64,000 bases of DNA, taken from NCBI GenBank assembly GCA_041665145.1, contig JBAYJK010000001.1, positions 421,629-485,628 on the forward strand, in the 5' to 3' direction. Made by a program: the position numbers and the translations under genes. This stretch comes from Patescibacteria group bacterium (lineage in GTDB: Bacteria > Patescibacteriota > Microgenomatia > UBA1406). A model generated the notes under the pieces. It was given only the letters and a program-made list of their open reading frames with translations. It did no database searches and had not been told where the DNA came from. Of the stretch, positions 1,074 to 62,627 are shown piece by piece (the stretch's first letter is position 1; the number at the start of each line of letters is the position of its first letter).

Positions 1074-1086
1074 AGTATTTTTATAT

Positions 1087-1674: not shown

Positions 1675-2413
1675 TTTGTTTTGTTAAAACTTCTTGGATA
1701 ACGTTTGCCGTATAGTTCACCAGTGGCAGTGCAGTAGAGTATTCGAGACGACAGGGTCCGATAATGCCGATAGCACCCGTAGTTAATGGACTGTTGAATT
1801 GTGCGAAAACCGCTCCTAAGTTAAACAATGGTTTATAAAGGTAATCGTCACCGATGAGTACCTGGAAATCTACATGGTGCGTGAGAAGATCGTTGAGCGC
1901 TTTTGACCAGAACGCCACGTCATCCATATAGTTAAAAACCTGTCGTGAAAATTCAAAGTCAAGAAATTCACGTATTGCAAGGAGGTTATTAACTCCCGTG
2001 TAATAGCGGAAACCGTTGTCTAGAAAAACAAGTGACAATAGACCACTCTTTTTGGCAAGCACTCGCGCTGATTCTTCTAAAAATCGGATTGTATTATCCT
2101 GATAATCCCATACCTCGTTTTTTAGTGATGCCTCTTCCGCGGTTGAAAGTTGCTTCTTGGGAAGAAGAGTTTGCAAGTAAAAACGGAATGCTTTCGGTGT
2201 GGGAATCCGACCGGAAGAGAAATGAGCCTTCTCAATGTAACCCAATTTTCCCAAAACAACCATATCATTTCTGATTGTTGCCGGTGAAAAGCCCAACTTG
2301 AACTTTTTTTCCAAAAACTCGGAACCAACGGCGTTTCCGTTGTTTATGTACTCATCAATAATGGCCTTGAGAATTTTTATCTGACGCTCGGTCAGTTCAT
2401 TTACGTTTTCCAT
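1658..2413 (-). CDS. hrcA: Heat-inducible transcription repressor HrcA (short form, 251 aa)
   Basis: The N-terminal winged helix LTERQIKILKAIIDEY...SPATIRNDMVVLGKLGYIEKAHFSSGRIPT is HrcA-like. It overlaps grpE by 17 nt, and a CIRCE-like operator lies directly upstream. Confidence 0.85.
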   Translation of the reverse strand: MENVNELTERQIKILKAIIDEYINNGNAVGSEFLEKKFKLGFSPATIRNDMVVLGKLGYIEKAHFSSGRIPTPKAFRFYLQTLLPKKQLSTAEEASLKNEVWDYQDNTIRFLEESARVLAKKSGLLSLVFLDNGFRYYTGVNNLLAIREFLDFEFSRQVFNYMDDVAFWSKALNDLLTHHVDFQVLIGDDYLYKPLFNLGAVFAQFNSPLTTGAIGIIGPCRLEYSTALPLVNYTANVIQEVLTKQNEKAK

Positions 2414-2414
2414 A

Positions 2415-2441
2415 TTAGCAGTATTGTAAACAGCCTGCTAA
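2415..2441 (-). promoter_or_regulatory. CIRCE-like inverted repeat (HrcA operator variant)
   Basis: TTAGCAG-N13-CTGCTAA is a perfect 7-bp inverted repeat. Its 27-bp total length and outer TTAGCA/TGCTAA halves match canonical CIRCE (TTAGCACTC-N9-GAGTGCTAA). It ends 1 nt from the hrcA ATG. Confidence 0.6.
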
Positions 2442-2451
2442 TATTTGTCAA
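2423..2451 (-). promoter_or_regulatory. Sigma70-type promoter of hrcA-grpE-dnaK (TTGACA-17-TACAAT), 9 nt from the ATG
   Basis: On the minus strand: TTGACA (2451-2446), 17-nt spacer, TACAAT (2428-2423), then ACTGCTAAT and the ATG. No Shine-Dalgarno sequence is present. Confidence 0.55.
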
Positions 2452-2499
2452 GAGGATTTTATCAGGAAATCACTGAGTGTGCCAGTAAGGTTTATAAGA

Positions 2500-3117
2500 T
2501 CACCTGAACCATGAAGCAACACCGAGGGATGAGGGTATTCGGCCTACTTTATAACGCAAATCTTTTAGTGGCCGTTCTCCGATTTGTTTTGCAGGCACTC
2601 CTCCCATTATGGCAAAGGGCGGGACGTCTTTTGTAACCACGGCTCCGGCACCAATTATGGAACCTTTTCCGATTGTTACTCCGGGGAGAATTATTACACG
2701 GGGACCGATAAAAACATAGTCTTCAACGGTAACAGGCTCGGTGATAGGGTGGAAATCGTCTGCTTGTATATCGTGTTGTGACGTGTAGATCATGACGTCG
2801 GATGCGATATCGACATGTGAACCAATGGTAATTTTTCCCCGACCGTCGAGCGTGGCGTTTTCACCGATGAGCGTATCGTTTCCGACGGAAATACCGCCGA
2901 TCGTATAAAGCCGTAAACCCATGTAGATAGCCGAACCTTTCCCCAAACTGATTCCACTCAGCGAATATGCACATCGGCGGACAAAATGGGAAGGAAAATG
3001 ACCGATAAGATGTAACTTAAATACCCACAATTCGAAAAAAATAGCTTTTACACGATTGAATACTTTATAGGTAATTTCGTTCGGTGACAGCTCTTTTCCG
3101 TTTTTATCGTGAACCAT
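2500..3117 (-). CDS. Hexapeptide-repeat (left-handed beta-helix) acetyltransferase, WcaF/MAT-like
   Basis: 205 aa with repeated [LIV]G-x4 hexapeptide pattern ([28 protein letters not shown]...[25 protein letters not shown]). Confidence 0.75.
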
Positions 3118-3123
3118 GTAGTA

Positions 3124-3129
3124 ATTATA
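3124..3129 (-). promoter_or_regulatory. -10 box (TATAAT on minus strand) 6 nt before the acetyltransferase ATG
   Basis: Minus strand reads GGCATATAAT-TACTAC-ATG. No SD sequence is present. Confidence 0.45.
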
Positions 3130-3140
3130 TGCCTTTAAAA

Positions 3141-3149
3141 TGGTAAAAT
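3141..3149 (+). promoter_or_regulatory. Extended -10 (TGGTAAAAT) 6 nt before the uvrB ATG
   Basis: TGGTAAAAT-CTACCT-ATG(3156). No SD sequence is present. It is divergent from the acetyltransferase promoter. Confidence 0.45.
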
Positions 3150-3155
3150 CTACCT

Positions 3156-5165
3156 ATGCAATTCAAACTACATTCCCGTTTCAAACCGACAGGGGACCAA
3201 CCTCAGGCAATAGATAAGCTTGTTGAGGGTATTAAAAAAGATTATAAAGACCAGACGCTCATCGGTGTCACCGGGTCCGGAAAAACGTTCACCATAGCAA
3301 ATATGGTGGAGCGGCTGAATAAGCCGACGCTTATTATTTCGCATAATAAAACACTGGCTGCTCAGTTATACCAGGAATTCAGGGAATTCTTTCCGGAAAA
3401 CGCCGTCTCATATTTTGTCTCATATTATGATTTTTATCAACCGGAAGCATTTATCCCTTCGTCAAACACATATATTGAAAAGGAGGCGGATATTAACGAG
3501 CTTATCGATAAACTGCGTTTGCAGGCAACCACCAATCTTCTTTCTCGAAAAGATGTCTTGGTTGTTGCCTCAGTGTCATGTATCTATAACATTGGAAAAC
3601 CCGATAACTACGAACACTATACGAAAAGTATTAAAGTCGGGGATGACGTGGATCGAAAATCGTTTTATGCTCAGCTCGTACTTATGCAATATTCGCAAAG
3701 TCAGTTTGATTTTAAGCGTGGGACTTTTCGTGACCGGGGAGAGAATATCGACATCTACCCGTCATCGGAAGATATAGGGGTCCGTATCGAACTTATCGGC
3801 AATCGTATTTCGTCCCTGCGACTCATTGACCCGTTAACGGGCAAGACGGTGAAAGCATTGAATGAATACACCCTGTATCCTGCGCGACTTTATATGGCAG
3901 GTGGACAGGCGATGCAGTCAATACTTGACCAGATTCGGGAAGATGCACGGGTCGAATCAAAAGCATTAACCGATCAAGGAAAACTTGTGGAAGGCGACAG
4001 ATTATGGAAACGGGTAACTCACGATTTGGAACTTATTAAAGAAGTGGGATATGTTAACGGCATCGAGAACTATTCCCGCTACTTCGACGGCAGACAACCG
4101 GGCGAAGCTCCGTATAGTTTGTTGGAATATTTCCGACACAGCTATGAGGACGATTGGTTGCTATTTATTGACGAGTCGCACATGACTATTCCCCAGATCG
4201 GCGGGATGTATAACGGAGATTTCAGTCGTAAAGGAAACTTAATTAATTACGGTTTCAGATTGAAAGCAGCGTATGACAATCGTCCATTAAAATTTGAAGA
4301 ATTTCTGCCACGAGTAGGAAAAACCGTTTACGTTTCAGCAACACCCGCCGATTGGGAATTGAACAGGTCTCAGCAAGTGGTTGAACAACTTGTACGTCCG
4401 ACGGGAATTCCCGATCCGCAAATCAGTATTCGACCGGTAAAAAACCAGATAGATGATCTGATTAAAGAAATCGAGATTCGTGCCAAGAAAAAAGAGCGGG
4501 TGCTGGTTACGACTTTAACAAAAAGAATTGCGGAAGATTTATCGATGTTTCTGCAGGATAAAGGTGTGAAAGCGCAATATCTTCATTCGGACATTAAAAC
4601 ACTTGAGCGATCTGATGTTTTAGAAAAATTACGCAAAGGTGAATTTGATGTGCTTATTGGCATCAATCTTTTGCGTGAAGGACTTGATTTGCCCGAAGTC
4701 ACGCTTGTTGCGATATTGGACGCGGATAAGGAAGGGTTTTTGAGAAGCAAAACGGCGCTTGTCCAGACCATGGGCCGTGCGGCGCGCAACGTAGGCGGAG
4801 AAGTAATTCTCTATACCGATAAAATGACAAAGTCTATTACTGGAGCTGTGGAGGAAGTCAACCGCCGTAGAATATATCAAGAGAAATATAATAAAGAGCA
4901 CAACATTGACCCGAAAACTATTTTCAAACCTATCCGCGAAAAGGTGGTTATATCAGACGAGTCGGATCTCCAATTTTTCTTCTCAGACAAGAAATCGAAA
5001 TACGGCATGACGTCACTCAAAGACGTTACAACCGACAGCTTAACAGGTTATGACCGGAAGAAAATTATTGTTCGTCTTCGGCGACAGATGAAAAAAGAAG
5101 CGGATAACTTAAATTTCGAACTTGCCGCGCAGATAAGAGATAAAATAAAAGAATTAGAAAAATAG
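3156..5165 (+). CDS. uvrB: Excinuclease ABC subunit B
   Basis: 669 aa with a Walker A motif (GVTGSGKTFT), helicase motifs, and a C-terminal UVR motif (NFELAAQIRDKIKELE). Confidence 0.97.
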   Translation: MQFKLHSRFKPTGDQPQAIDKLVEGIKKDYKDQTLIGVTGSGKTFTIANMVERLNKPTLIISHNKTLAAQLYQEFREFFPENAVSYFVSYYDFYQPEAFIPSSNTYIEKEADINELIDKLRLQATTNLLSRKDVLVVASVSCIYNIGKPDNYEHYTKSIKVGDDVDRKSFYAQLVLMQYSQSQFDFKRGTFRDRGENIDIYPSSEDIGVRIELIGNRISSLRLIDPLTGKTVKALNEYTLYPARLYMAGGQAMQSILDQIREDARVESKALTDQGKLVEGDRLWKRVTHDLELIKEVGYVNGIENYSRYFDGRQPGEAPYSLLEYFRHSYEDDWLLFIDESHMTIPQIGGMYNGDFSRKGNLINYGFRLKAAYDNRPLKFEEFLPRVGKTVYVSATPADWELNRSQQVVEQLVRPTGIPDPQISIRPVKNQIDDLIKEIEIRAKKKERVLVTTLTKRIAEDLSMFLQDKGVKAQYLHSDIKTLERSDVLEKLRKGEFDVLIGINLLREGLDLPEVTLVAILDADKEGFLRSKTALVQTMGRAARNVGGEVILYTDKMTKSITGAVEEVNRRRIYQEKYNKEHNIDPKTIFKPIREKVVISDESDLQFFFSDKKSKYGMTSLKDVTTDSLTGYDRKKIIVRLRRQMKKEADNLNFELAAQIRDKIKELEK

Positions 5166-5168
5166 CAC

Positions 5169-5711
5169 ATGGCTGAAAAACTATTGGCAGTACTGGTTGT
5201 GATCTTGACCATCTTATTCACCGGTAACGCTGTTGTTGCTCCGGAACGGCAGAAAATTTCCCCTTCACCGAAACCTCATATTACTGCAAGTGTGTCGGCA
5301 TATCTTGCAGTAACTAAAGTTGTTGATGGGGATACGATCCATGTTTTGATCGATGGGACAAAACAGACGGTTCGCCTTATTGGAGTTGATACGCCCGAAG
5401 TTGTTGATCCCCGCAAACCCGTGCAATGTTTTGGGAAAGAAGCGTCTGCGCGTGCAAAAGAGCTGCTTACCGGAAAATCTGTGAAACTCGAAAATGACCC
5501 GACGCAAGGGGATAAAGATAAATACGGTCGGTTACTGCGTTATGTGTTTATGGAAGATGGCACCAATTTTAATAAAAAAATGATTGAAGACGGGTATGCA
5601 CATGAATACACGTACAATCTGCCGTATAAATATCGGGATGAATTTAAGCAGGCAGAACGCGACGCACGATTACACAAGCGTGGCCTGTGGGCCGATGGTG
5701 TGTGTTTATGA
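5169..5711 (+). CDS. Membrane-anchored thermonuclease (staphylococcal nuclease/SNase family)
   Basis: 180 aa. An N-terminal hydrophobic helix is followed by VVDGDTIHV...VRLIGVDTPE...GKEASARAKELL...DKYGRLLRYV...YAHEYTY...RGLWA, a typical SNase-fold pattern. Confidence 0.8.
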   Translation: MAEKLLAVLVVILTILFTGNAVVAPERQKISPSPKPHITASVSAYLAVTKVVDGDTIHVLIDGTKQTVRLIGVDTPEVVDPRKPVQCFGKEASARAKELLTGKSVKLENDPTQGDKDKYGRLLRYVFMEDGTNFNKKMIEDGYAHEYTYNLPYKYRDEFKQAERDARLHKRGLWADGVCL

Positions 5712-5736
5712 GAATATTTTCGTATCAGATTCGGTT

Positions 5737-6957
5737 TTACATAAACGAACTATAGCGAGGGTCAATATCTGCAAGTTTCGGAGCAGCACGCACTCCATCA
5801 ATAAATTCTTCCGCACCCAAATTCGCGTTTGCATGTCGGCATAAATCTATCGGGCAAGTGCTGTCTCTTTCTGTTCTATTCATCTGTTCAATAACTTCTC
5901 TGTGCTTAGAGCTCGACCATATATGGGACCAGGAATTAGTTCTAATATTACCGATAGACAAATTTTTCATGTCGATTTCCGGATTTCCCAAATACACTTC
6001 GCCGTCAGGGTCAATTGCTGCGAAATGGCTGTGAACTGCGTTATAGCAAGCACGCGTTCTCTGTACCGGTTTAGTTTGTTGCATTAATGTAGTAGCAAAT
6101 CTTGTTAGCAATGGATGGCTTGAGTAATCGGTAGATAACATATGAAAGAGCTCAGCTTTTTCCTGAAATTGAAGTTCCACAGATTGCTGGCCCTTACCAT
6201 CGCCATAGTTATAATCTTGGACAAGTCGTAAACCGACAGTATCTACTCCCAGGCTTTCAAAAAATTTAACCATCCGCGGGGTGAACATATAATTTTTCCG
6301 GTTAACCAACAGTTTTACGTTAATAACGAGATCAGGATTATATTGTTCACGAAGGGCAATAATATTTCTTATGTTTTCTACAACTCGATCAAATTTGTCC
6401 ACTTGTTCTGTGTCGTGAAATAGTTCCCGGGTATCTCCCGAACAGCTGATGGACAGTAGATTCACCGACTGTAGGTTTCTGGGGTCTTTTGTGAGTTTAT
6501 CTAGTCGAATTCCGTTTGTCTGAACAAAGTTTTGCGCAAACGTTGAAGCGAACCCAAGTGCCTCTACTATATGTGGCCACACCATCGGTTCTCCTCCACC
6601 GGCCCAATATGTTCCCCGCGTCATTCCGCCGCTTTTTAAGTCCTCTAAAAGTTTAAAGACCGTGTCACGAGGTAAATCAACCAGAGAAAGCAGGTTTCCG
6701 GGAGATATTGTACGAGCGCGCTCAATAGCAGCTTTGTTTGCATACCTATAGGAACAGTGAGTGCAATTTGCGTTACAACGCCAAGTTGGCATGATTTCTA
6801 CTGTCCATGGACCTCCTGGTGTTGGCTCATTGTCAGCTAAACGCAATTGACTTCGCACGTGTGCAATATATGCAGCCCGCTCAGCAAAGTTATATGTATT
6901 ACGACCGGAAGTATCGACTGCAACTGAAAGCGTGCCGTCGTTTGTATCAACACTCAT
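5737..6957 (-). CDS. Radical SAM enzyme of unknown specificity
   Basis: 406 aa. It has a CxxxCxxC cluster (WRCNANCTHCSY), a GGEP motif (WAGGGEPMVW), and a C-terminal region with three Cys (RACYNA...STCPIDLC) resembling a partial SPASM/twitch extension. Confidence 0.8.
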   Translation of the reverse strand: MSVDTNDGTLSVAVDTSGRNTYNFAERAAYIAHVRSQLRLADNEPTPGGPWTVEIMPTWRCNANCTHCSYRYANKAAIERARTISPGNLLSLVDLPRDTVFKLLEDLKSGGMTRGTYWAGGGEPMVWPHIVEALGFASTFAQNFVQTNGIRLDKLTKDPRNLQSVNLLSISCSGDTRELFHDTEQVDKFDRVVENIRNIIALREQYNPDLVINVKLLVNRKNYMFTPRMVKFFESLGVDTVGLRLVQDYNYGDGKGQQSVELQFQEKAELFHMLSTDYSSHPLLTRFATTLMQQTKPVQRTRACYNAVHSHFAAIDPDGEVYLGNPEIDMKNLSIGNIRTNSWSHIWSSSKHREVIEQMNRTERDSTCPIDLCRHANANLGAEEFIDGVRAAPKLADIDPRYSSFM

Positions 6958-6965
6958 ATCGTCGT

Positions 6966-6974
6966 ATTATACCA
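6966..6974 (-). promoter_or_regulatory. Extended -10 (TGGTATAAT on minus strand) 8 nt before the radical SAM ATG
   Basis: Minus strand reads TGGTATAAT-ACGACGAT-ATG(6957). No SD sequence is present. Confidence 0.45.
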
Positions 6975-7041
6975 CTTCTATCCTATAGAAGTATATAATA
7001 GTCGGATCATAAAAGTGGTTCTGTTAATATCATCACTAATT

Positions 7042-7050
7042 TGGTATACT
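7042..7050 (+). promoter_or_regulatory. Extended -10 (TGGTATACT) 10 nt before the uvrA ATG
   Basis: TGGTATACT-TTTACCCTTT-ATG(7061). No SD sequence is present. Confidence 0.4.
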
Positions 7051-7060
7051 TTTACCCTTT

Positions 7061-10015
7061 ATGGATGTCATCAAAATTCGCGGTGCCCGGGTTCATAACT
7101 TGAAGAATGTGGACCTTGATATTCCCAAGAACAAATTGGTTGTGTTTACCGGCGTATCGGGTTCGGGGAAGAGTTCGTTGGCGTTTGATACGATCTATGC
7201 CGAAGGACAACGTCGGTATGTCGAGTCCTTGTCGTCATATGCACGACAATTTTTAGGTGTAATGGAAAAACCGGATGTTGATCTTATCGAAGGGCTGTCT
7301 CCGGCAATTTCAATCGATCAGAAAACTGCCTCGCATAATCCACGTTCAACTGTCGGAACAGTCACCGAAATTTATGACTATCTTCGCCTGTTGTATGCCC
7401 GAGCCGGTCACCCGCATTGTTATAACTGCGGCAGGGAAGTAAAGAAGTTATCACCTCAAGAAATCGTTGATTTGGTAATGAACCGTTTTGTGGAAATCGT
7501 GAAAAATGGAAAAGGGAAACCAGGCAGATTCCTGATTATGTCCCCAGTTGTGAAAGACAGAAAAGGTGAATTTAAAGAGCTTTTTGATAATGTCCGATAT
7601 AAGGGATATTCCCGTGTCAGAATCGATGGTTACTACTATAATCTGAACGATGACGACTTGTTTATTCTCAAGAACAACAAGCATACCATAGACATTATTA
7701 TTGACCGACTCACTATCGATCAAGCGACCATGAAAGATGAAAAGCGTGTTGCCGATCTTCGTTCCCGGGTTTTTAAAGCCGTCGAAAACGCACTTATACT
7801 GGCAGAAGGATTAGTGGTTCTTGCACATGTGAAGGATGCGGGATTTGACCTTCCCGATAGCCCGAAAGATTTACATGAAGAGCTCTATTCGGAACGTTTC
7901 TCATGTCCAGTTTGTAATATTTCTTTTGCAGAGCTTGAGCCCCGACTTTTCTCTTTCAACTCACCGGTCGGAGCATGCCCGCATTGCAAGGGATTGGGAA
8001 TAATTCTTAAGGTGAATCAGGATCTGGTTGCAAATCACGAACTTTCTATTGCTGAAGGAGCGATATTTCCGTTTCAAAAAATATTGTTTTACGACACGTG
8101 GACAAGCAGATTATTCAAAGTGTTTATTGATAAATACGCGATAAACCCGAACCGACCTTTGAAAGAATTAACTACTGCTCAACAGACCGCCCTGATGTTC
8201 GGATCACCGGATGTATTTACGGTAAAAGGTAAGAATAAGGAAGGGATTATGACGTCGATACACGAGAAGTGGGCAGGAGTTGTGGGTGAGCTTGAGAAAA
8301 AATATTACAGTACTGAAGTTGACTATTCTCGAGATGATATCGAAAAATATATGAAAGAGGAAGTGTGTCCGACGTGCAAGGGGCAAAAACTTAAACCAGA
8401 AGCACTGGGGGTTACAGTCGGAGACAAAAATATTGCTGATCTATGCGATTTGTCAATTCTCGAAGAAATCAAATTTTTTGCTGATATTACACCGCTCCTG
8501 ACACTTACCGAACAACAAATTGCCAAACCGATTGCAAAAGAGATCAGCACACGATTACATTTTTTAGGAAATGTCGGTCTTGGGTATCTCACGCTATCCC
8601 GGCGTGCGAAAACTCTTTCCGGTGGTGAGGCTCAACGCATACGTCTTGCTTCCCAAATAGGAACAGGGCTTACGGGAATAACCTATGTACTTGACGAGCC
8701 GTCAATCGGTTTGCACTCGCGTGATGTGCACCGTCTTTTGGAGGCGCTTACAAAATTACGTGATTTACAAAATAGCGTTGTCGTTGTCGAACACGATGAA
8801 GATACGATTCGTGCAGCGGATTGGCTGGTTGATTTTGGACCATTTGCCGGAAAAAACGGGGGCGAGATAGTGTTTAGCGGATTACCCACAGACATTACCA
8901 AAGAAAAAAAGTCGATAACCGGGGCGTTTCTTTCGGGCAAACGGTTGATAGCATCCCGGACAAATTCGCGAAAACCGGAGTTAACCATGACGTTTAACGG
9001 AGCGACAGCGCATAACCTGAAAAATGTTTCTGTCACGTTTCCGCTTAACAGAATGGTAGGAATTACCGGTGTTTCAGGTTCGGGGAAGTCGTCACTACTG
9101 TTGGAAACTATTTATCCGGCACTTGAAAAATATCTGAACCCTTATTACAAAGGAGAGAATCCACTTATAAAAAGCGTATCGGGTTTGGAAAACGTGCAAC
9201 GTGCCGTTTTGGTTGATCAATCTCCGATCGGAAGAACGCCACGTTCCAATCCCGCGACATACACCGGCGTGTTTACTTATATTCGAGATCTTTTCGCGTC
9301 TACGTTGGACGCCAAAGCTCGCGGCTACAGTCCCGGCAGATTCTCGTTTAACGTGAAAGGCGGAAGGTGTGAAAACTGTCAGGGAGCCGGAGTGATTAAG
9401 GTTGAAATGCAGTTTTTGGCTGATGTGTATATCACCTGTGACGTATGTAACGGCCGCCGATATAACAGCGAGACATTGGATGTTTTGTTCAAAGGCAAAT
9501 CCATCGACCAGGTAATCGGGATGAGTGTTGATGACGCCTTTACGTTTTTTGAGAATCACCACAAGATCCAAAAAATACTGCGGGTTATGCAGGATGTGGG
9601 ACTTGGGTACATCGAACTCGGGCAACCGGCGCCCACCTTATCAGGAGGAGAAGCACAGAGGGTGAAACTTGCGAAGGAATTGTATACGAATATTCATGTG
9701 CATAGCGTATATATTCTTGATGAGCCGACAACAGGGCTCCATATGTACGATGTTGATAAACTGATCGGTGTTTTGAGAAATCTTGTCGAGCAAGGAAATA
9801 CGGTTTTGGTAATTGAACACAACCTGGATGTCATTCGTAACTGTGATTATATTGTCGATCTCGGTCCGGACGGGGGTGACGCCGGAGGAAAGCTGTTGTT
9901 TCAGGGAACGGTTTCCGAGCTTATGAAAGACACACGTTCCTACACGGCGGAATATGTGAGAAAATATGGACATGGCGAAAAAAAAGAAGTCGAAAGTCGA
10001 AAGTCTAAAGTCTAA
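7061..10015 (+). CDS. uvrA: Excinuclease ABC subunit A
   Basis: 984 aa with two ABC ATPase modules (GVSGSGKSSLAFDT; GVSGSGKSSLLLET; two LSGGE signatures) and zinc-finger Cys pairs. The last 9 codons are encoded by a heptamer repeat array. Confidence 0.97.
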   Translation: MDVIKIRGARVHNLKNVDLDIPKNKLVVFTGVSGSGKSSLAFDTIYAEGQRRYVESLSSYARQFLGVMEKPDVDLIEGLSPAISIDQKTASHNPRSTVGTVTEIYDYLRLLYARAGHPHCYNCGREVKKLSPQEIVDLVMNRFVEIVKNGKGKPGRFLIMSPVVKDRKGEFKELFDNVRYKGYSRVRIDGYYYNLNDDDLFILKNNKHTIDIIIDRLTIDQATMKDEKRVADLRSRVFKAVENALILAEGLVVLAHVKDAGFDLPDSPKDLHEELYSERFSCPVCNISFAELEPRLFSFNSPVGACPHCKGLGIILKVNQDLVANHELSIAEGAIFPFQKILFYDTWTSRLFKVFIDKYAINPNRPLKELTTAQQTALMFGSPDVFTVKGKNKEGIMTSIHEKWAGVVGELEKKYYSTEVDYSRDDIEKYMKEEVCPTCKGQKLKPEALGVTVGDKNIADLCDLSILEEIKFFADITPLLTLTEQQIAKPIAKEISTRLHFLGNVGLGYLTLSRRAKTLSGGEAQRIRLASQIGTGLTGITYVLDEPSIGLHSRDVHRLLEALTKLRDLQNSVVVVEHDEDTIRAADWLVDFGPFAGKNGGEIVFSGLPTDITKEKKSITGAFLSGKRLIASRTNSRKPELTMTFNGATAHNLKNVSVTFPLNRMVGITGVSGSGKSSLLLETIYPALEKYLNPYYKGENPLIKSVSGLENVQRAVLVDQSPIGRTPRSNPATYTGVFTYIRDLFASTLDAKARGYSPGRFSFNVKGGRCENCQGAGVIKVEMQFLADVYITCDVCNGRRYNSETLDVLFKGKSIDQVIGMSVDDAFTFFENHHKIQKILRVMQDVGLGYIELGQPAPTLSGGEAQRVKLAKELYTNIHVHSVYILDEPTTGLHMYDVDKLIGVLRNLVEQGNTVLVIEHNLDVIRNCDYIVDLGPDGGDAGGKLLFQGTVSELMKDTRSYTAEYVRKYGHGEKKEVESRKSKV

Positions 10016-11930
10016 AGTATCAGTCGTCATTGCGAAGCTCGACGGTGGTCGACTGAAGCAATCTCTTACGAATTCAAGATCGCCTCGTCGCATAGCTTCT
10101 CGCAATGGCATTCTCTATGTTTTTTTGCTTACCATATTTTTGCTTTTTCCTCGCTTTGTTGATGCGGCAACAATAGAAACATCATATGTCGACACCTACA
10201 CTATCAATGACACCCGTGATGTGTTGGCAAAGCGTGAGATTACGCTCACGAATACCACGGCGACCCTGTATGTCAGCGAATACTCTTTTTCCTTCAATAA
10301 CCCCGGAATTATCGGTAATCTGTCAATCACGGAAGATACTGTGCCGGCTGATTTTACCCAATCATTGTCAGATGGAGTGCTTCGGGTAACCGTTACGTTT
10401 AAAAATCCGGCAATCGGCAAGGGAACAAAGAAAAATATACTTATTTCTTACTCATTATCGGGATTTCTTTCGGACCAGGGTGCGTATCGTGAGATGTATA
10501 TACCCGTGAGTTCGCACTCGGAAGCGGAGCAGCTTAAAAATTACCGGGTTGAAGTTGATACGCCTGCAGATTTTCCGGAAGTCTCAATTGCAAAACCAAA
10601 ACTCAGTAGTTTCGCAAATCATCGATATGTGTGGGATGATGTGCAATCACTCGCCCATAGAAACATTTTTATTGCGTTTTCCAAGAAGGCATTCTATAAA
10701 GTAGAATTGAGATATGCTCTCCAGAACAATTCCCCGTATGCGCAAAAAATTTCCATACCTTTTGTTCCCGAAGGCCCGTACCAGAAGGTATATGTCGAGA
10801 GTATTGAACCGCCTCCGTCGGAAACCTCAATCGATGCCGATGATAACTATCTCGGTACATATATTATGCCTGCACACGAAATTATTCATGTGGTATACAG
10901 AGGAACGATCGAACTCACTATTGATTCCCGTCAGGACGTTCGGGAATACTTTCAAAAGCAATTTAACAAAGTAGGACTTGGCCGGTATCTGACAGACGAA
11001 AAATATTGGAACATTCCTGATGTTCTGATTGAAAAAAATAAGTTGGATAATTTGCACAATGCTTCCGACATTTACTCGTTTGTCACGAAAACGCTATCAT
11101 ATGATACCGGCAGGATTAACAATGATCTTGCCCGCATGGGGGCTTCATGGGCGCTCGAAAATCCAAGTCGTGCGGTCTGTATGGAATATTCCGATCTGTT
11201 TATCGCAATCGCGCGTGAAAAAGGAATTCCGGCGCGCGAAGTTGTCGGTTATGCAGTTACTAATGACAGTTCGCTGCTTCCGTCATCATTTTTCGGTGAT
11301 GTGCTGCATGCATGGCCGGAATATTATGATCAGACACGACAACAATGGCAGCACATCGATCCCACGTGGGGAAATACCGCTTTGGTGGACTACTTTACGG
11401 TAACGGATCTCGACCACATCGCTTTTGTATACCACGGGAAAGACACGACATACCCGCTTCCCCCTGGTGTCTATAAAATACGCGAAAATACGAAAGATGT
11501 ATATGTATTGCCCGTTCATGAGGCGCCGCGTGAGGAACGAAGCGTGGAGGTGATCATGCCGTCAACCGTTGAATTTTCTCTCGGTTCAACAAACAAAATG
11601 GCAGTGCTGATTAAGTCTAAAAGCAATGTGTTTCTCTATGATATTCCTTTTGTGCTTCGAGATGTCGTGACTAAAAAAAATCTCGGAAGCGGCACAATTG
11701 ATCGGCTGGAACCATACGGATCACGTACATATAAAATTGCAGTAGACAGCAAAATTACGACAACAGGCGATGGGGGAACATTTGAAATCGTGATAAACGG
11801 TGAATCTGTCGGGACACGTGAATATACCGTCCGCAGCTCGCTTTTGCTGCTTATCAACCAATATAGAGGGGTCCTGATAGGGTTGGGGATTGGTATAATG
11901 GTCCTTATTATCATTTATCTATTCCGGTAA
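9966..11930 (+). CDS. Transglutaminase-like domain membrane protein
   Basis: 654 aa with N- and C-terminal hydrophobic helices. The transglutaminase core pattern is VCMEYSDLFIAIAREKGIPAREVVGY ... HAWPEYY ... DPTW (Cys/His/Asp). The start is uncertain: the annotated ATG overlaps uvrA by 50 nt inside the repeat array. Confidence 0.7.
   Translation: MDMAKKKKSKVESLKSKVSVVIAKLDGGRLKQSLTNSRSPRRIASRNGILYVFLLTIFLLFPRFVDAATIETSYVDTYTINDTRDVLAKREITLTNTTATLYVSEYSFSFNNPGIIGNLSITEDTVPADFTQSLSDGVLRVTVTFKNPAIGKGTKKNILISYSLSGFLSDQGAYREMYIPVSSHSEAEQLKNYRVEVDTPADFPEVSIAKPKLSSFANHRYVWDDVQSLAHRNIFIAFSKKAFYKVELRYALQNNSPYAQKISIPFVPEGPYQKVYVESIEPPPSETSIDADDNYLGTYIMPAHEIIHVVYRGTIELTIDSRQDVREYFQKQFNKVGLGRYLTDEKYWNIPDVLIEKNKLDNLHNASDIYSFVTKTLSYDTGRINNDLARMGASWALENPSRAVCMEYSDLFIAIAREKGIPAREVVGYAVTNDSSLLPSSFFGDVLHAWPEYYDQTRQQWQHIDPTWGNTALVDYFTVTDLDHIAFVYHGKDTTYPLPPGVYKIRENTKDVYVLPVHEAPREERSVEVIMPSTVEFSLGSTNKMAVLIKSKSNVFLYDIPFVLRDVVTKKNLGSGTIDRLEPYGSRTYKIAVDSKITTTGDGGTFEIVINGESVGTREYTVRSSLLLLINQYRGVLIGLGIGIMVLIIIYLFR
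9987..10021 (+). repeat. 7-bp tandem array (AAGTCGA x2, AAGTCTA x2, AAGTATC)
   Basis: Read directly from the sequence. It spans the uvrA stop codon and the 5' part of the 9966 ORF. Its 20-mer 9999-10018 recurs with 19/20 identity in gatB (59576-59595, opposite strand). Confidence 0.85.
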
Positions 11931-13285
11931 TGTTGAAATTTATTCAACAGCCTAACGCTTTATTCTGGAAACAGGTACCCGAAAAAACGGGTGTCTACTA
12001 TTTTTTGAATTCCGAGAAGCAGCCTATCTACATTGGTAAAGCACTTAATATTCGGGATCGTTTGAAACAACACGTGTCAAATACCGATGACCCGAAAGAG
12101 CGTGCAATCGTTGGACACACAGCATATCTCCAGTGGCAGGAAACGCTCTCGGAATTTGAAGCTCTGGTTCTTGAAGCAAATCTTGTCTGGTCTATTCAGC
12201 CGATGTATAACTCGGAACTGAAGGATGATAAAAGTCCGATTTATCTTGTTATCACTGACGAAAAGTTCGGAAAGGTGCGCCTGGCACGAAAAAGCAACCT
12301 GACGGGAAAAGAAAGATTGGTGTTCGGACCTTTGACAAGTGCTAAGGTTGCGCGTCAGATACTTCGTATGCTCCGGCACATTTATCCATTTTGTACAGAA
12401 CTAAAAATAACCAGAAAACCGTGTTTTTACCAACACCTTGGTTTGTGTGATCCATGTCCGAATCAGATTATGTCACTGGTCACTGGTCGCGAGTCAGGGG
12501 TCATGAGTCACGAGTCAGAAGTTGAAGTAAAAAAGTTAACGATTAAGTATCAGACTAATATCAGAAACCTCATGAAGATATTACAAGGTGATGGCAGGAA
12601 ATTACTGAAGGAAATTACCAAAGAAATGCAAAGTGAATCCGATGCGGAGAATTTTGAGGAGGCACGACTTCTGCGTGACAGAATATACTATCTCGAAAGG
12701 CTTTTCAGAGGAGAAATGTATACGCAGGAAGAGCTCATCGACCCCGCGTTTATGCAGGATGAGCGTAAGAAAGAAACAGAAGAACTTGAATGTGTTCTGG
12801 GAATAAATACTATCCATCGCGTTGAATGTTATGACATCAGCAATCTCAATTTTGATGCGGCAACAGCATCTATGGTGGTTTTTCATGACGGTGATCCGGA
12901 TAAAAAAGAGTATCGCCGTTTCAAAATAAAAGGTAAACGGCGGTTTGATCCGGAAATGCTATTGGAAGTTTTACGGCGGCGTTTTAAACATACGGAGTGG
13001 AAAATGCCAGATCTTTTAGTACTTGACGGCGGAACCCCTCAAGTATTGTCAGTATACCCGGCCTTGAAAGCAGAATATCCCCAGATGCCCCCGCTTATCG
13101 GTATTGCAAAAGGTCCCGATAGGCTGCTTGTGGCAAAGAGTCTGACATATCTGAACCTGCCGTACGATTCGCATGCACTCCATTATATTCAGCGGTTGCG
13201 GGATGAAGCGCACCGTTTTGCCAAAAAATATCATCTGTTGTTGCGTGGGCGTAATTACGGATTTCCCAGCGGGGTTAAAAAGTAG
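11930..13285 (+). CDS. uvrC: Excinuclease ABC subunit C, short form lacking the C-terminal (HhH)2 domain
   Basis: 451 aa. It has a GIY-YIG domain (GVYYF...PIYIGKALNIRDRLKQH), a UVR motif (FEEARLLRDRIYYLERL) and an endonuclease domain (VECYDISN...). The protein ends right after RDEAHRFAKKYH. Confidence 0.9.
   Translation: MLKFIQQPNALFWKQVPEKTGVYYFLNSEKQPIYIGKALNIRDRLKQHVSNTDDPKERAIVGHTAYLQWQETLSEFEALVLEANLVWSIQPMYNSELKDDKSPIYLVITDEKFGKVRLARKSNLTGKERLVFGPLTSAKVARQILRMLRHIYPFCTELKITRKPCFYQHLGLCDPCPNQIMSLVTGRESGVMSHESEVEVKKLTIKYQTNIRNLMKILQGDGRKLLKEITKEMQSESDAENFEEARLLRDRIYYLERLFRGEMYTQEELIDPAFMQDERKKETEELECVLGINTIHRVECYDISNLNFDAATASMVVFHDGDPDKKEYRRFKIKGKRRFDPEMLLEVLRRRFKHTEWKMPDLLVLDGGTPQVLSVYPALKAEYPQMPPLIGIAKGPDRLLVAKSLTYLNLPYDSHALHYIQRLRDEAHRFAKKYHLLLRGRNYGFPSGVKK
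12472..12527 (+). repeat. 7-bp tandem array (GTCACTG x2, GTCGCGA, GTCAGGG, GTCATGA, GTCACGA, GTCAGAA, GTTGAAG) inside uvrC
   Basis: Read directly from the sequence. It is translated in frame as SLVTGRESGVMSHESEVE. Confidence 0.85.
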
Positions 13286-13699: not shown

Positions 13700-13917
13700 T
13701 GTTTCAAACATTTTTTCTCATTTTTTATCTGGTAGTGGCCGCTTCGGTAATCGGGCTTATTCTTATGCAGGGAAGAGGTGCCGGTTTAGGGAGTGCATGG
13801 GGTGGTTCTGGTGAAACGTTCTCGACGAGACGAGGAGTTGAGAAGGTAACGTTCTACATTACCATCAGCATCATAGGTTTGTTTTTCATTCTCTCGGTCG
13901 TCAATCTATTTATATGA
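13696..13917 (+). CDS. secG: Preprotein translocase subunit SecG
   Basis: 73 aa, two TM helices, with the central motif LMQGRGAGLGSAWGGSGETFSTRRG typical of SecG. Confidence 0.8.
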   Translation: MMFQTFFLIFYLVVAASVIGLILMQGRGAGLGSAWGGSGETFSTRRGVEKVTFYITISIIGLFFILSVVNLFI

Positions 13918-15278
13918 AACGTCTGACAAGAAGCTTACGCTATTCGTGGTGGCTTGTGAGTGGGTTTATACGGAAGAACCTTCCCATTATTCTTATTGTT
14001 TTTGTCATCGCTTTTTTCGGACTTTTTTTCTCCCGTGCGTTTGCAAACAATCTCACCTATTACTTTAATTTCAATAAGCAGAAAGTCGGTATATTGGCAC
14101 AGGGCGATGCAAGCCGTATGCCGCTTGCGGTGTTGAAGAAAGTTTCTTCGGCACTAGTTGGTTACGACGAAAAAGGTCAGCTGAAACCGCAATTACTTAA
14201 GAAATGGGAAGTGTTGGATCAGGGAAAAAAATTTGTCTGTACATTCCCAAAAAATCTAATATGGGCCGACGGGACAGCGTTTAGTGTAAAAGATATTGAT
14301 GCATCCGTCATAACATTTCCTAATGTAAAAACAACTATGCCCGATGATTTGACCATCAGTTTTGAGCTGCATGACCCGTTGGTTAACTTTCCGTCACTCC
14401 TGACGACTCCCGTTATAAAAAGCAATTTTGTCGGTATCGGTGGCGCATATAAAATTGCACATATTAAGTATGAATTCGGGCAGATAAAGTCGGTAAATCT
14501 TCAACCGTTGGAGCGGGGACTACCGTATCTGGTATACAAACTGTACAATACTCAGGACGAGGAGGTGCTTGCATACAAAATGGGGGAAATAGACATGCTT
14601 GTTACTGATGATAAGACAGTGCATGATGTGTTTGTGTCGTGGAAAAATACAACAATATTTGAATCCACAGATTACGAGAAAATGGCGGTTATTTTCGTGA
14701 ATACGGCAAAAGCTCCGCTCGACAACAAAAATCTTCGGCAAGCGATTGCGCAACTCATCGATTATTCAAAGTTTGAAGCGTACGGCGTTCGTGCGTATTC
14801 GCCGATTTTTCCTTACTCGTTTGCTTACAACGCTGACGTTAAAACATATAATTATGAGCCGGAGATTGCCCAAAGCTTGGTAGAAAAAAATAATGCCGGA
14901 GGTCATAAGCTTCGATTATATGCTCCTTACGAGCTTAACCAGGCAGCGGAAGTCGTGAGCAAAGATTTGAAAGCTGCCGGGTTTGCACCCGAGCTGCGGT
15001 ATGCAAACTACATTCCTACAGACTACGACTTGTTTCTTACCTTGTGGGAACCTCCTGTTGATCCGGACCAATATGTTTTTTGGCACCAAACACAAAAGGC
15101 TTCCAATTTGTCCAATTTTAAGAACGTAAAAGCCGACAAGTTTCTGGAGGACGGAAGAAGTGAATTGTCGCAGACAAAGCGAAAACAAATATACATTAAA
15201 TTCCAAGACTTGCTTGCCGAAGAAGAACCTGCCGTGTATCTCTACTTTCCCAAGCAATACACAATAACACGACAGTAA
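13914..15278 (+). CDS. Membrane-anchored solute-binding protein, family 5 (peptide/nickel type), orphan
   Basis: 454 aa with an N-terminal TM helix. LKKWEVLDQGKKFVCTFPKNLIWADGTAFSVKDI resembles the SBP_bac_5 signature region. No permease or ATPase genes are adjacent. Confidence 0.6.
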   Translation: MKRLTRSLRYSWWLVSGFIRKNLPIILIVFVIAFFGLFFSRAFANNLTYYFNFNKQKVGILAQGDASRMPLAVLKKVSSALVGYDEKGQLKPQLLKKWEVLDQGKKFVCTFPKNLIWADGTAFSVKDIDASVITFPNVKTTMPDDLTISFELHDPLVNFPSLLTTPVIKSNFVGIGGAYKIAHIKYEFGQIKSVNLQPLERGLPYLVYKLYNTQDEEVLAYKMGEIDMLVTDDKTVHDVFVSWKNTTIFESTDYEKMAVIFVNTAKAPLDNKNLRQAIAQLIDYSKFEAYGVRAYSPIFPYSFAYNADVKTYNYEPEIAQSLVEKNNAGGHKLRLYAPYELNQAAEVVSKDLKAAGFAPELRYANYIPTDYDLFLTLWEPPVDPDQYVFWHQTQKASNLSNFKNVKADKFLEDGRSELSQTKRKQIYIKFQDLLAEEEPAVYLYFPKQYTITRQ

Positions 15279-15306
15279 ACAGTATGGAAATCTGCATTGT
15301 TCGAGT

Positions 15307-15312
15307 TATACT
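15307..15312 (+). promoter_or_regulatory. -10 box (TATACT) 6 nt before ATG 15319
   Basis: TATACT-GTTTGT-ATG. No SD sequence is present. Confidence 0.4.
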
Positions 15313-15318
15313 GTTTGT

Positions 15319-16254
15319 ATGTCCCAGATTGTCGTCACATTTACGCTTGGCGTCATCATCCTTCTTCTTTCGACGCAGTGGTTTTTGAAGGCTGCGGAGC
15401 GCATGTCTTTAGTGCTCCGGGTATCTCCGCTCATCATCGGATTGACTGTTGTTTCAATCGGCACGTCACTGCCGGAACTTGCGGTTTCGGCTATCGCAGT
15501 CTTTAACGGCGATTCGGGATTGGCTACGGGCAATATTATTGGCTCCAACATTATCAATGTGTTTTTGGTGTTTGGTATCGGCATCCTGTTGGGGAAGCTT
15601 CGAGTGGGAACACAGAAAACACAGAAAAACATCTACATGATGTGTGGAATTACCGCAGTATTTCTGTTGTTGTATTTTTTGCATGTTCCGAATGTTTTGT
15701 CCGGCATCATCCTACTTCTTGCCGCTCTGGTCGTGTCCATACAGGAGTATGTATGGGGAATCAAAGGACGGAAATTCGAAGATGCAGTATTGTACCTGAA
15801 AAACAAGCGAAAACGCGGCATTCCCTTAGATATCATAATGATCGGATTTTCGGTTGTGGGAATTATAGCGGGTGGAATGTTGACGGTCTCGTCGGTAGAA
15901 CGGTTGTCGGCGTTATTGGATATATCAACCACCATACTCGGATTGTCCGTGACAGCGATAGCCACATCGCTTCCCGAGCTTCTGACGACATTATTCAGCG
16001 AAAAGGATCACGAAGAGAAAATTACGATCGGCAACCTGATGGGCAGCAACATCTACAATCTGGCTTTGATCGGCGGTCTGATTCTGCTGTTTTCCCCTTG
16101 GAAATCCGTCACTTCGTACGAATCCGTAATGCTCATACTTGCGACTTTTGCTTTTACAATTACCGTGGCGATATATAAGGGTAAAGTAATTCCGAAAGGG
16201 GTCGGCCTCATCTTTTTGGGTATGTGCGTGGGCTACCTTTTTTTCCTTCAGTGA
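15319..16254 (+). CDS. Ca2+/Na+ antiporter (CaCA family, YrbG-like)
   Basis: 311 aa polytopic protein with two alpha-repeat motifs (GTSLPELAVS...GNIIGSNIINV and ATSLPELLTT...GNLMGSNIYN). Confidence 0.8.
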   Translation: MSQIVVTFTLGVIILLLSTQWFLKAAERMSLVLRVSPLIIGLTVVSIGTSLPELAVSAIAVFNGDSGLATGNIIGSNIINVFLVFGIGILLGKLRVGTQKTQKNIYMMCGITAVFLLLYFLHVPNVLSGIILLLAALVVSIQEYVWGIKGRKFEDAVLYLKNKRKRGIPLDIIMIGFSVVGIIAGGMLTVSSVERLSALLDISTTILGLSVTAIATSLPELLTTLFSEKDHEEKITIGNLMGSNIYNLALIGGLILLFSPWKSVTSYESVMLILATFAFTITVAIYKGKVIPKGVGLIFLGMCVGYLFFLQ

Positions 16255-16305
16255 GGAGAAGACGGGCAAAAATTGCCAAGCTCAAGTGTTTATTGAACAT
16301 TTCTG

Positions 16306-16324
16306 GTGCCGGGAAGAGGACTTG
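16306..16324 (-). repeat. Displaced copy of the tRNA-Leu 3' end (19 nt) with encoded CCA
   Basis: GTGCCGGGAAGAGGACTTG is identical to 16416-16434. On the minus strand this copy reads ...CAAGTCCTCTTCCCGGCACCA, whereas the intact tRNA copy has no encoded CCA. Confidence 0.75.
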
Positions 16325-16416
16325 TTCAACTGTCCGTTGACGAGCTTCTGGGGAGTCTTACGGACAGTTAATCCCGATGAGCATGTGCGAATCGGGAAAC
16401 CTCTATAAATAATCTG

Positions 16417-16498
16417 TGCCGGGAAGAGGACTTGAACCTCCACGCCTTACGGCATACGCACCTCAAGCGTACGTGTATACCAATTTCACCATCCCGGC
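16417..16498 (-). tRNA. tRNA-Leu (anticodon GAG), class II with long variable arm
   Basis: Hand-folded as acceptor GCCGGGA/TCCCGGC, anticodon stem TACGC/GCGTA, loop TTGAGGT, variable arm TGCCGTAAGGCGT, and T-arm GGAGG-TTCAAGT-CCTCT. Length is 82 nt. Confidence 0.85.
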
Positions 16499-16504
16499 GA
16501 AAAT

Positions 16505-16595
16505 AAGCTTAAAGCTTAAATATTTAATATAAATAAAGCCTAAAGCTTAAATATTCAAGCTTTATTAAATCTTAAGCCTTTAAGCTTTATGCTTA
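16505..16595. repeat. Degenerate 7-bp tandem array (AAGCTTA family, ~13 units)
   Basis: AAGCTTA AAGCTTA AATATTT AATATAA ATAAAGC CTAAAGC TTAAATA TTCAAGC TTTATTA AATCTTA AGCCTTT AAGCTTT ATGCTTA. It runs from the tRNA-Leu 5' flank into the last codons of yqeY. Confidence 0.8.
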
Positions 16596-17014
16596 TTTAC
16601 CAACCCTGCTATTCTACTAGACTCAGCCACACCTTTCAACTCGCGAACAACCAAACCGATTTTTTGACCCATATTGGTTACTTCAGGATGAGCCTCAATT
16701 ACTGTTTTTATTCTGCTTAGAAGTTCATCTTCTGGCATCTCTGCAGGTACGTATGAGGAAAGCACTTTCATTTCATACTCATTTTCCTCCACTAGGTCTG
16801 TTCTTCCACCTTTTTCAAACATAAGCTTGGCGTCGTTAATGGACTTCAGTTGCTTTCGGATAACTGCGACAACCTCCTCGTCTGTAAGCTCTCTATGTTT
16901 ATCTATTTCGGCATTTTTGATTTGAGAAATCAGACTGCGCAAAATTGTCACCTTTTTGCTTTCTTTCGCTTTCAATGCAGTAATCATGTCCTGTTGAAGT
17001 TGTTGTTTTATCAT
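16580..17014 (-). CDS. yqeY: GatB/YqeY domain protein
   Basis: 144 aa. MIKQQLQQDMITALKAKESKKVTILRSLISQIKNAEIDK... is typical of the YqeY family. Confidence 0.85.
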   Translation of the reverse strand: MIKQQLQQDMITALKAKESKKVTILRSLISQIKNAEIDKHRELTDEEVVAVIRKQLKSINDAKLMFEKGGRTDLVEENEYEMKVLSSYVPAEMPEDELLSRIKTVIEAHPEVTNMGQKIGLVVRELKGVAESSRIAGLVNKHKA

Positions 17015-17021
17015 AGATGTT

Positions 17022-17030
17022 AGTATAACA
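17022..17030 (-). promoter_or_regulatory. Extended -10 (TGTTATACT on minus strand) 7 nt before the yqeY ATG
   Basis: Minus strand reads TGTTATACT-AACATCT-ATG(17014). No SD sequence is present. Confidence 0.45.
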
Positions 17031-17046
17031 TGAACATTCTCGACTG

Positions 17047-17081
17047 TTTAATCTTTATTCTTTAAGCTTTAAGCTTACCTT
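17047..17081. repeat. 7-bp tandem array (TTTAATC TTTATTC TTTAAGC TTTAAGC TTACCTT)
   Basis: Read directly from the sequence. It uses the same AAGCTT word family as 16505-16595, on the other side of yqeY. Confidence 0.75.
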
Positions 17082-17285
17082 TCTATCCTATAGTTGCCTT
17101 TTCACGGCAAAAGTGTTAAAATTATCACATATTCTTATGGGTGGTGTATTTGGTGGTATAACAAATATACATATCAAATACATACAAAGATTTTGGGCAC
17201 ATTGCAGCCTCAAATTTCACCCACAGTTCTTTAAAAAGAGAATCTACAACAATAAACACGCTCAGTTGGCGCGTTGAGGAAATAA

Positions 17286-17333
17286 GTCTTAAGGTCTAAG
17301 TGTCTGAATGTCTGAGAGTCTAAATGTCTCAAG
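17286..17333. repeat. 8-bp tandem array (GTCTTAAG GTCTAAGT GTCTGAAT GTCTGAGA GTCTAAAT GTCTCAAG)
   Basis: Read directly from the sequence. It lies at the left edge of the GC-rich island. Confidence 0.8.
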
Positions 17334-17425
17334 ATCAAGACAAGACTTGCTTTTTCGGCGCGCTGACTGAGTGCGGGCAGGTACGAGGGAGGCGACACTT
17401 AACAATAGGAAAGAAGGAATAGACA

Positions 17426-43798: not shown

Positions 43799-43811
43799 AC
43801 TTCAAGCAAAT

Positions 43812-43880
43812 TCGAAGTTCGAATATCGAAATCCGAAACAATCCAGTAGCAGATTGCTAAATTGCTATATTGTTGTGTAT
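43812..43880. repeat. Degenerate 7-bp tandem array (TCGAAGT TCGAATA TCGAAAT CCGAAAC ... TTGCTAA ATTGCTA TATTGTT)
   Basis: Read directly from the sequence. The segment 43854-43876 matches 45257-45279 at 21/23 positions. Confidence 0.8.
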
Positions 43881-45246: not shown

Positions 45247-45311
45247 AATTGTTAATTTGCTAAATTGCTGGATTGTTGTACTGTTGTATTGCTGGGTATG
45301 TGTTTTGTGTG
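45247..45311. repeat. Degenerate 7-bp tandem array (ATTGCT/ATTGTT word family)
   Basis: AATTGTT AATTTGC TAAATTG CTGGATT GTTGTAC TGTTGTA TTGCTGG GTATGTG TTTTGTG. It shares TTGCTAAATTGCT..ATTGTTGT with 43854-43876. Confidence 0.8.
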
Positions 45312-62626: not shown

Positions 62627-62627
62627 G

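Follow-up and report, generated by a model that had tools for sequence, protein, structure and literature searches.

The subject of this analysis is a set of short tandem arrays of seven-nucleotide units (heptamers) in a 64,000-nt stretch of DNA from a Patescibacteria group bacterium of the candidate phyla radiation (CPR; contig JBAYJK010000001.1, positions 421,629–485,628). The whole stretch is referred to below as the window. Two arrays are central here, one at the junction of uvrA with the gene for a transglutaminase-core membrane protein (TG), and one within gatB:

7061–10015, plus strand: uvrA, 984 aa
9966–11930, plus strand: TG, gene for a transglutaminase-core membrane protein
9978–9985, plus strand: A8 homopolymer, directly 5' of the junction array and within both the uvrA and the TG reading frames
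9987–10021, plus strand: junction heptamer array, AAGTCGA AAGTCGA AAGTCTA AAGTCTA AAGTATC
58867–60204, minus strand: gatB, 445 aa, start ATG 60204
59569–59603, minus strand: gatB heptamer array, coding strand AAAGTAG AAAGTCT AAAGTCT AAGGTAG AAAGTTT, encoding KVESLKSKVESL

Tandem Repeats Finder (TRF) places the junction array at 9987–10018, with period 7, 4.6 copies, and 96% matches; this result and the sequence itself agree with the five tandem 7-mers at 9987–10021 named in a preliminary description of the locus. The uvrA frame ends in EKKEVESRKSKV followed by the stop; the array portion is read as EVESRKSKV, and the stop codon is the TAA across the boundary of the two AAGTCTA units. The open reading frame (ORF) 9966–11930 begins with MDMAKKKKSKVESLKSKV, and here the array corresponds to TG residues ~8–19 (SKVESLKSKVS). 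The translations agree with the double reading proposed earlier, as the UvrA end and, in the other frame, as early TG residues. The TG start is set at ATG 9966 by JGI (654 aa) and at ATG 9972 by NCBI (652 aa); both annotate the long form.

Positions 9999–10018 match the reverse complement of 59576–59595 in gatB at 19 of 20 nucleotides. This match had already been described, correctly and with some understatement, as the similarity extends to 29 nt (9991–10019 with 59575–59603, 27/29), the longest inverted repeat in the window by a whole-window repeat search. The match in gatB is translated as AKVESLKSKVESL. The word AAGTCNAAAGTCNA, with at most one mismatch, has six matches in the window versus 0.44 expected, a count that none of 100 shuffles reaches. 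The KVESLKSKV frame is common to the TG and gatB arrays; this is forced rather than coincidental, since wherever AAGTCTA stands twice in a row, TAA closes two of the three frames, leaving a single open one. The order of unit variants is also common to the junction and gatB arrays (CG, AAAGTxG, AAAGTCT, AAAGTCT, AAxGTA).

The gatB array occupies the hypervariable loop between EPNISV and LPxYKVEVKNINSF, both the sequence and the length of which differ widely among 28 CPR orthologs. The 12 aa seen here are typical of these orthologs, hence, the array is not a net insertion and replaces the loop sequence. At the DNA level, relatives with 82, 79, and 70% identity all have, at this site, period-7 or period-8 arrays with (A/G)AGTC-type units: AAGGTCG AAAGTCTG AAGGTCTC AAGGTCTC AAAGTCT in L123, where the derived 8-mer is itself duplicated; AAGTCAG AAGTCAA GAGGCAG GAGTCAG GAGTCTA in L124; and a decayed array in L125. 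Neighboring units within a lineage are more alike than their orthologous counterparts, and this homogenization, together with the duplicated 8-mer of L123, has the appearance of continuing slippage with homogenization. Judged from these comparisons, the gatB array is old and the array at the uvrA border young; as the two share the unit and the order of variants, the old array was probably the template for the young one, by copying or gene conversion. The gatB start is itself ambiguous, the mechanically called ORF starting from TTG 60222 and the database protein from ATG 60204.

The two arrays belong to a general excess of period-7 repeats. TRF yields 12 period-7 rows in the window versus a mean of 1.16 (maximum 3) in 50 dinucleotide-preserving shuffles, an approximately 10-fold enrichment, so that the period-7 excess anticipated in the preliminary description is indeed present in these 64 kb. 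An exact-run lag statistic for period 7 was too insensitive, and the comparison of TRF rows with shuffles was used instead. After merging, the rows form 11 loci. Eight are intergenic or lie at most 45 nt from a gene end, a zone that makes up 13.4% of the window (binomial p = 1.2e-5); the three internal ones fall in variable loops or segments of GatB, UvrC, and AtpG. This placement bears out the earlier claim that such repeats are found at a gene end, in a conserved enzyme, and in a spacer.

Units recur between loci. Among the 12 period-7 arrays of the window and the 6 kb past its right end, three pairs have identical units versus 0.056 expected, and nine pairs agree within one mismatch versus 1.28 expected (P ≤ 0.0005). 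The recurring families are AAGTCGA (9987 and 59569), AAGCTTA (16505, 16572, and L121:1547), and AAATTCG (43808 and L121:811). The units are also diverse, with at least eight different heptamers in 64 kb. The whole-window repeat search revealed neither common flanks nor terminal repeats around the arrays, and Rfam returned only two tRNAs for the window. The sampled sequence comes to ~78 kb of a ~0.92-Mb genome. Several arrays are rich in AAGCTT, GAGTC, or TTCGAA, and a relation to restriction sites was considered; these words are neither avoided nor enriched overall.

The nearest named homologs of GatB and UvrA come from Woese-, Levy-, and Roizmanbacteria. The order uvrB ... uvrA–TG–uvrC–holin–secG–SBP_bac_5 is kept in three relatives with 66–71% UvrA identity (L126, L127, and L128), and no period-7 array is present in their 48.6 kb; hence, the arrays are a recent, lineage-specific acquisition. 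Arrays at orthologous sites differ between closer relatives, while those covered in assemblies of this organism are identical, although these assemblies may share one source sample. Specifically, other assemblies are 100% identical to the window over 1–12413 and 48867–64000, including the arrays covered, and the ENA assembly L130 is identical at the junction. No length variants are seen in the 90%-identity clusters of UvrA, TG, UvrC, AtpG, and GatB; the clusters of UvrA and TG comprise two NCBI metagenome-assembled genomes (MAGs) and JGI, ENA, and Logan records. A metagenome scan for population variation at the junction, with the fixed anchors AATATGGACATGGCG N{25,55} GTATCAGTCGTCATTGCG, gave no matches.

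Both genes at the junction are remodeled. After the conserved ...SYTAEYVRKY, the UvrA tail comprises 15 aa (GHGEKKEVESRKSKV) versus 3–8 aa in the nearest full-length relatives, UvrA orthologs ending 3–8 residues past the conserved SYTxxYLxxY motif; the approximately 10 additional residues are lineage-specific. In distant relatives, TG begins with a short n-region that leads straight into the hydrophobic segment, and the gene overlaps uvrA by 8–23 nt. Alignments of TG homologs start only at query residue ~49–55 (best hits listed in a representative search), hence, the first ~46 TG residues are new, and constitute a lineage-specific N-terminal extension ahead of the ancestral signal/transmembrane segment. 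The lineage-specific insertions suspected earlier are therefore seen in the UvrA tail and the TG N-terminus, and not in the gatB segment, where the loop has its typical length. In the closest relative with available DNA (L129; 89% identity over the UvrA C-terminus), the same uvrA/TG junction carries GAGCTAT GAGCTAG GAGCTAG, directly followed by a normal TG start. An intermediate relative known as protein only (P0241; TG 76% identical) has a 32-aa extension (MGMAINEQSVVGSQDLAMVVVSSKL...), which has the MxMA start and the VV(I/V)xxKL segment in common with TG of the window, without the hairpin interior described below; no loci related to its junction were found among metagenome contigs. The uvrA/TG border is thus a hot spot of array birth and replacement.

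The extension also contains a palindrome:

10026–10109, plus strand: imperfect 84-nt hairpin, within the TG N-terminal extension

The RNA fold of 10015–10115 has −33.4 kcal/mol (z = −3.2), a stability that 200 shuffles all fail to reach. The hairpin has no further copy in the window and is not present in L129. Its 3' arm resembles an inverted copy of the 5' arm, and the latter encodes SVVIAKL, a segment also found in P0241.

The other array loci of the window are as follows:

1622–1659, minus strand: heptamer array, TTTGTTG on the plus strand, hrcA/grpE junction
12472–12522, plus strand: heptamer arrays GTCACTG and GAGTCAG/GAGTCAC/GAGTCAT, uvrC linker
16505–16520 and 16541–16594, unstranded: AAGCTTA-type heptamer arrays, between tRNA-Leu and the yqeY 3' end
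17047–17076, unstranded: TTTAATC/TTTAAGC heptamer array, upstream of yqeY
17285–17334, plus strand: period-8/16 array with a GTCT core, intergenic, ~92 nt upstream of ORF 17426–19036
39187–39213, plus strand: ATCACGG heptamer array inside atpG (ATP synthase gamma), segment EESRITNHGS
43808–43838, plus strand: AAATTCG heptamer array, just downstream of rplS (ribosomal protein L19)
51875–51956, plus strand: pgk–ppdK spacer, filled by a GTTTATG and a neighboring CTCTTAA heptamer array, with a period-14 overlay

The array at 1622–1659 encodes the start of a ~38-aa low-complexity N-terminal extension of GrpE (195 aa versus 156 aa in L127); the protein collection lacks GrpE as read from ATG 1674, hence, annotators chose another start. 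The uvrC arrays coincide with an 8-aa insertion relative to three relatives. The array at 17047–17076 is a direct and inverted repeat of those at 16505–16594: the AAGCTT-containing arrays on both sides of yqeY form direct (31 nt, 84%) as well as inverted (30 nt, 83%) repeats, because their unit is nearly self-complementary. The array that the preliminary description had placed at 17286–17333 and assigned to the same word as the junction array does exist; however, it has period 8/16, shares only the GTCT core, and is loosely related.

Two more arrays lie just past the right end of the window. At L121:811–843, a perfect (AATTTCG)x4.7 array at the Mur-ligase/Cu-oxidase_4 junction has a unit identical to that at 43808, and at the next junction (L121:1547–1575) a CTTTAAG array has a unit identical to that at 16505. 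The period-8 unit ATTGCTAA constitutes a second dispersed family, with three loci: 43853–43872, upstream of a UPF0102/YraN-like gene; 45249–45287, before tRNA-Glu; and 61551–61573, at the gatC/gatA junction inside the gatA N-terminus.

Several neighboring features stand out as well. The gene yqeY (16580–17014), adjoined by tRNA-Leu(GAG), is on the minus strand, whereas three relatives have it in the orientation of the adjacent genes; its orientation in the window may reflect an array-mediated inversion or rearrangement of region 16416–17080. Synteny with L126, L127, and L128 ends after the SBP_bac_5 gene (13914–16254 region), and a Na+/Ca2+ exchanger gene (15319–16254) is found where all three have a TP_methylase gene. 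ORF 17426–19036 (536 aa, without a Pfam match) has ~55% G+C versus ~43% for the window, and is full of degenerate 12/18-nt repeats (17921–18400) whose predicted translation is rich in Thr, Pro, and Asp; the product is possibly a surface protein that evolves fast or was acquired horizontally. ORF 22410–23714 (minus strand, 433 aa, without a Pfam match) contains 18/42/60-nt tandem repeats at 22741–22924, which suggests a repetitive low-complexity linker protein.

Three tandem AAGTCNA units were searched for in 185,579 species genomes, yielding at least 120 loci; the figures given here for other phyla are those among the matches listed. The loci come from many cyanobacteria, Bacteroidota, and Acidobacteriota, and also from Verrucomicrobiota; ten loci belong to eight CPR genomes (Roizman-, Chisholm-, Microgenomates, Parcu-, and Saccharibacteria). 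With the seed arrays removed, the matched sequences contain 308 further period-7 arrays versus 16 in shuffles, and period 7 is far above periods 6, 8, and 9. Gene edges or spacers account for 13 of the 34 arrays at the CPR loci versus 18.7% expected (p = 0.006). An AGTC core was considered as a universal feature of heptamer arrays and rejected: it is seen in only 12% of the 302 listed other-genome arrays (those of the 308 with a clean 7-nt consensus) versus 5% at random, and the 184 distinct units have no common motif.

The explanation that we favor, and consider fairly probable, is that the arrays are lineage-specific heptanucleotide simple sequence repeats (SSRs) akin to the short tandemly repeated repetitive (STRR) sequences of cyanobacteria, made by slippage, possibly copied between loci, near-neutral, and kept where they are tolerated. 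Replication slippage, or local duplication of a 7-nt unit, would both create arrays of ~2–5 units and drive their turnover, and arrays would persist only where they do little harm, that is, in spacers, near gene borders, and in protein termini that are disordered or loops that are hypervariable. Coding arrays are indeed found only in variable parts of proteins (the gatB loop, the uvrC linker, the atpG segment, the GrpE N-terminus, the UvrA tail, and the TG N-terminus). In uvrA, a G-to-T unit variant created TAA inside the array, making the tail longer by ~10 aa. The ancestral TG start has been lost, and the gene is now read from the upstream ATG 9966/9972 through A8, the array, and the hairpin segment, which yields a ~46-aa cytoplasmic extension. 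The excess of arrays, their placement and lineage specificity, the turnover at orthologous sites, and the remodeled gene ends are direct results of the comparisons; slippage as the source, copying between loci, and near-neutrality are inferred.

Several observations speak against this explanation. Slippage that acts only locally predicts neither that identical units recur nor the 27/29 match, and both require an additional copying step or a strong sequence bias; the period of 7 is left unexplained; the absence of copy-number variation across assemblies and protein clusters means that slippage is not demonstrably active now; and array density is patchy, with none in 8.3 kb left of the window and only ~78 kb of the genome covered. 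A bolder version, in which templated copying moves short arrays between distant loci (the 27/29-nt patch), rewires termini (stops, starts, and the N-terminal extension), and may have made a slippage-controlled TG switch, seems to us rather unlikely. If true, templated copying may have yielded a switch of an envelope transglutaminase-like protein in an organism reliant on surface contact with its hosts.

Such a switch could also be the function of the junction array by itself, A8 and the array in the first ~20 TG codons forming a contingency locus, whose slippage would turn the membrane-anchored transglutaminase-like protein ON and OFF (phase variation). The architecture of a contingency locus is present at TG: the unit length is not a multiple of three, the array lies between the only usable TG starts (9966 and 9972) and the transmembrane segment, and the product is a probable envelope protein. 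In silico, gain or loss of one or two units truncates TG at 11–27 aa, and loss of one unit fuses the uvrA frame into TG; phase variation by heptanucleotides is known from Haemophilus (PMC8262952). However, the junction array has only ~4 imperfect units, it is identical in L130, the UvrA and TG clusters contain no length variants, and the majority of the remaining arrays occupy spacers or essential enzymes, where ON/OFF control would be pointless. Phase variation itself is hypothetical, and we hold it to be improbable. We regard as similarly doubtful a cis-regulatory role, in which arrays would serve as mRNA or single-stranded DNA sites for a protein with an oligonucleotide/oligosaccharide-binding (OB) fold, cold-shock or S1-like, one per heptamer, and tune translation or coupling at junctions. 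A model with an OB-fold protein was proposed, and candidate binders discussed, for the TAACTGA repeats of Beggiatoaceae (PMC4679880), and the strong enrichment of arrays at gene borders and in spacers, as well as the L129 array, which contains AGGAG and abuts the TG start codon, fit this role. On the other hand, the diverse heptamers of the window offer no common motif to a sequence-specific binder, the distance from array to start codon varies from about 0 to 92 nt, several arrays are inside coding loops, and orthologous sites in relatives have no array or a different unit. Promoter and terminator scans of three array regions (16200–17500, 51700–52100, and 9800–10250) gave nothing above the shuffle expectation, and no such sites at the uvrA/TG junction.

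The hairpin allows for another interpretation, that the ~130-nt lineage-specific border block (array plus hairpin) is a palindrome inserted in frame, similar to miniature inverted-repeat transposable elements (MITEs) or Rickettsia palindromic elements (RPEs), with the arrays being its parts or scars. In-frame palindromic insertions are known in Rickettsia, the hairpin is more stable than all its shuffles, and the block is found in none of L129, L126, L127, and L128. At the same time, the hairpin segment is single-copy within the window, the other arrays do not have common flanks or terminal repeats, and the partial extension of P0241 (MGMA...VVVSSKL), which lacks the hairpin interior, suggests stepwise growth, not one insertion; a mobile-element footprint is accordingly very improbable. 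Finally, low-complexity sequence can be mis-assembled, and arrays of the same unit automatically share long words. However, the arrays keep the reading frame of conserved genes, JGI and NCBI call them identically, they do not differ between the separate assemblies examined, and relatives from other samples have orthologous arrays; chance similarity is excluded by the shuffle statistics for TRF rows, motif matches, and unit families; this possibility is effectively refuted.

A CPR genome of ~0.9 Mb provides a compact system for the birth, turnover, and possible inter-locus copying of repeats. Among long bacterial microsatellites, none are more common than heptamers, but there is no explanation for where they come from, for the preference for period 7, or for the spread of identical units to many loci. 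The most useful leads here are the apparent inter-locus copying of the 29-nt patch and the clean phylogenetic on/off pattern: no arrays in the sampled family-level relatives, and present but different ones in closer relatives. The repeats also remodel genes: the UvrA tail is extended, the TG start is replaced, and residues are inserted in UvrC and GrpE. For annotation, this means that start and stop calls at array-bearing junctions are fragile, as with the TG start, on which JGI and NCBI disagree.

The arrays can be compared with four known systems. As in the hmw1A/hmw2A promoters of Haemophilus influenzae, a slippage-prone unit whose length is not a multiple of three is found at the 5' end of a gene for an envelope protein; unlike there, no length polymorphism is seen, the units are few and imperfect, and most sister arrays are away from gene 5' ends. 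A second system is the STRR of the heterocystous cyanobacteria Calothrix, Nostoc, and Anabaena, which are likewise tandem 7-nt units in short arrays, with few unit families, each at several loci, mostly intergenic and sometimes coding, without a known function or spreading mechanism. Recurring unit families are found here as well, judged on the ~78 kb. The host, in contrast, is a Patescibacteria MAG and not a cyanobacterium, the units are AAGTCNA, AAGCTTA, AAATTCG, etc., and arrays have 2–5 units. The canonical STRR units, reportedly described by Mazel and co-workers in 1990 as STRR1 CCCCAGT, STRR2 TTGGTCA, and STRR3 CAACAGT, are not among the window arrays. The likeness to STRR drawn in the preliminary description is apt as to tandem heptamers in few recurring families; however, heptamer excess is widespread in bacteria and not peculiar to heterocystous cyanobacteria.

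The TAACTGA repeats of marine Beggiatoaceae, some Cyanobacteria, and Bacteroidetes (MacGregor 2015, PMC4679880) are similar in having 2–6 heptamer copies at many gene junctions, in occurring in distant phyla, and in that stop codons, produced by the unit in some frames, restrict how they overlap gene ends. A difference is that they have one dominant unit immediately upstream of starts, versus many units at varying distances here; no TAACTGA array is present in the window. The same paper notes that the literature offers no explanation for the spread of identical units to many loci (PMC4679880).

The long SSRs of Mrazek et al. (2007) have, according to the account in PMC4692102, units of 5–11 nt, e.g., GGGAATC in Xanthomonas and GGGGAYT in Nostoc. 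Among the long SSRs of bacteria, heptanucleotides form the largest class, and the proposed cause is polymerase slippage over a ~7-nt footprint (Mrazek 2007, as summarized in PMC4679880 and PMC4692102). The window arrays are long SSRs in this sense, that is, tandem repeats of a 1–11-nt unit that are longer or more common than composition predicts. Shared features are the period-7 excess, the intergenic bias, polymerase slippage as the favored explanation, and the same inter-gene positions in relatives with turnover of length and sequence, as seen in related Xanthomonas species, where repeats between the same genes vary in length and sequence (PMC4692102). In contrast, the units described here are A/T-rich and cannot form G-quadruplexes, several arrays are translated, and CPR have not been surveyed previously. 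The arrays are apparently unreported for CPR: in agreement with the preliminary description, no paper joining Patescibacteria with heptanucleotide repeats was found in the literature collection searched. As heptamer excess is widely known in bacteria, what is new here is the host group and the units, rather than the kind of element.

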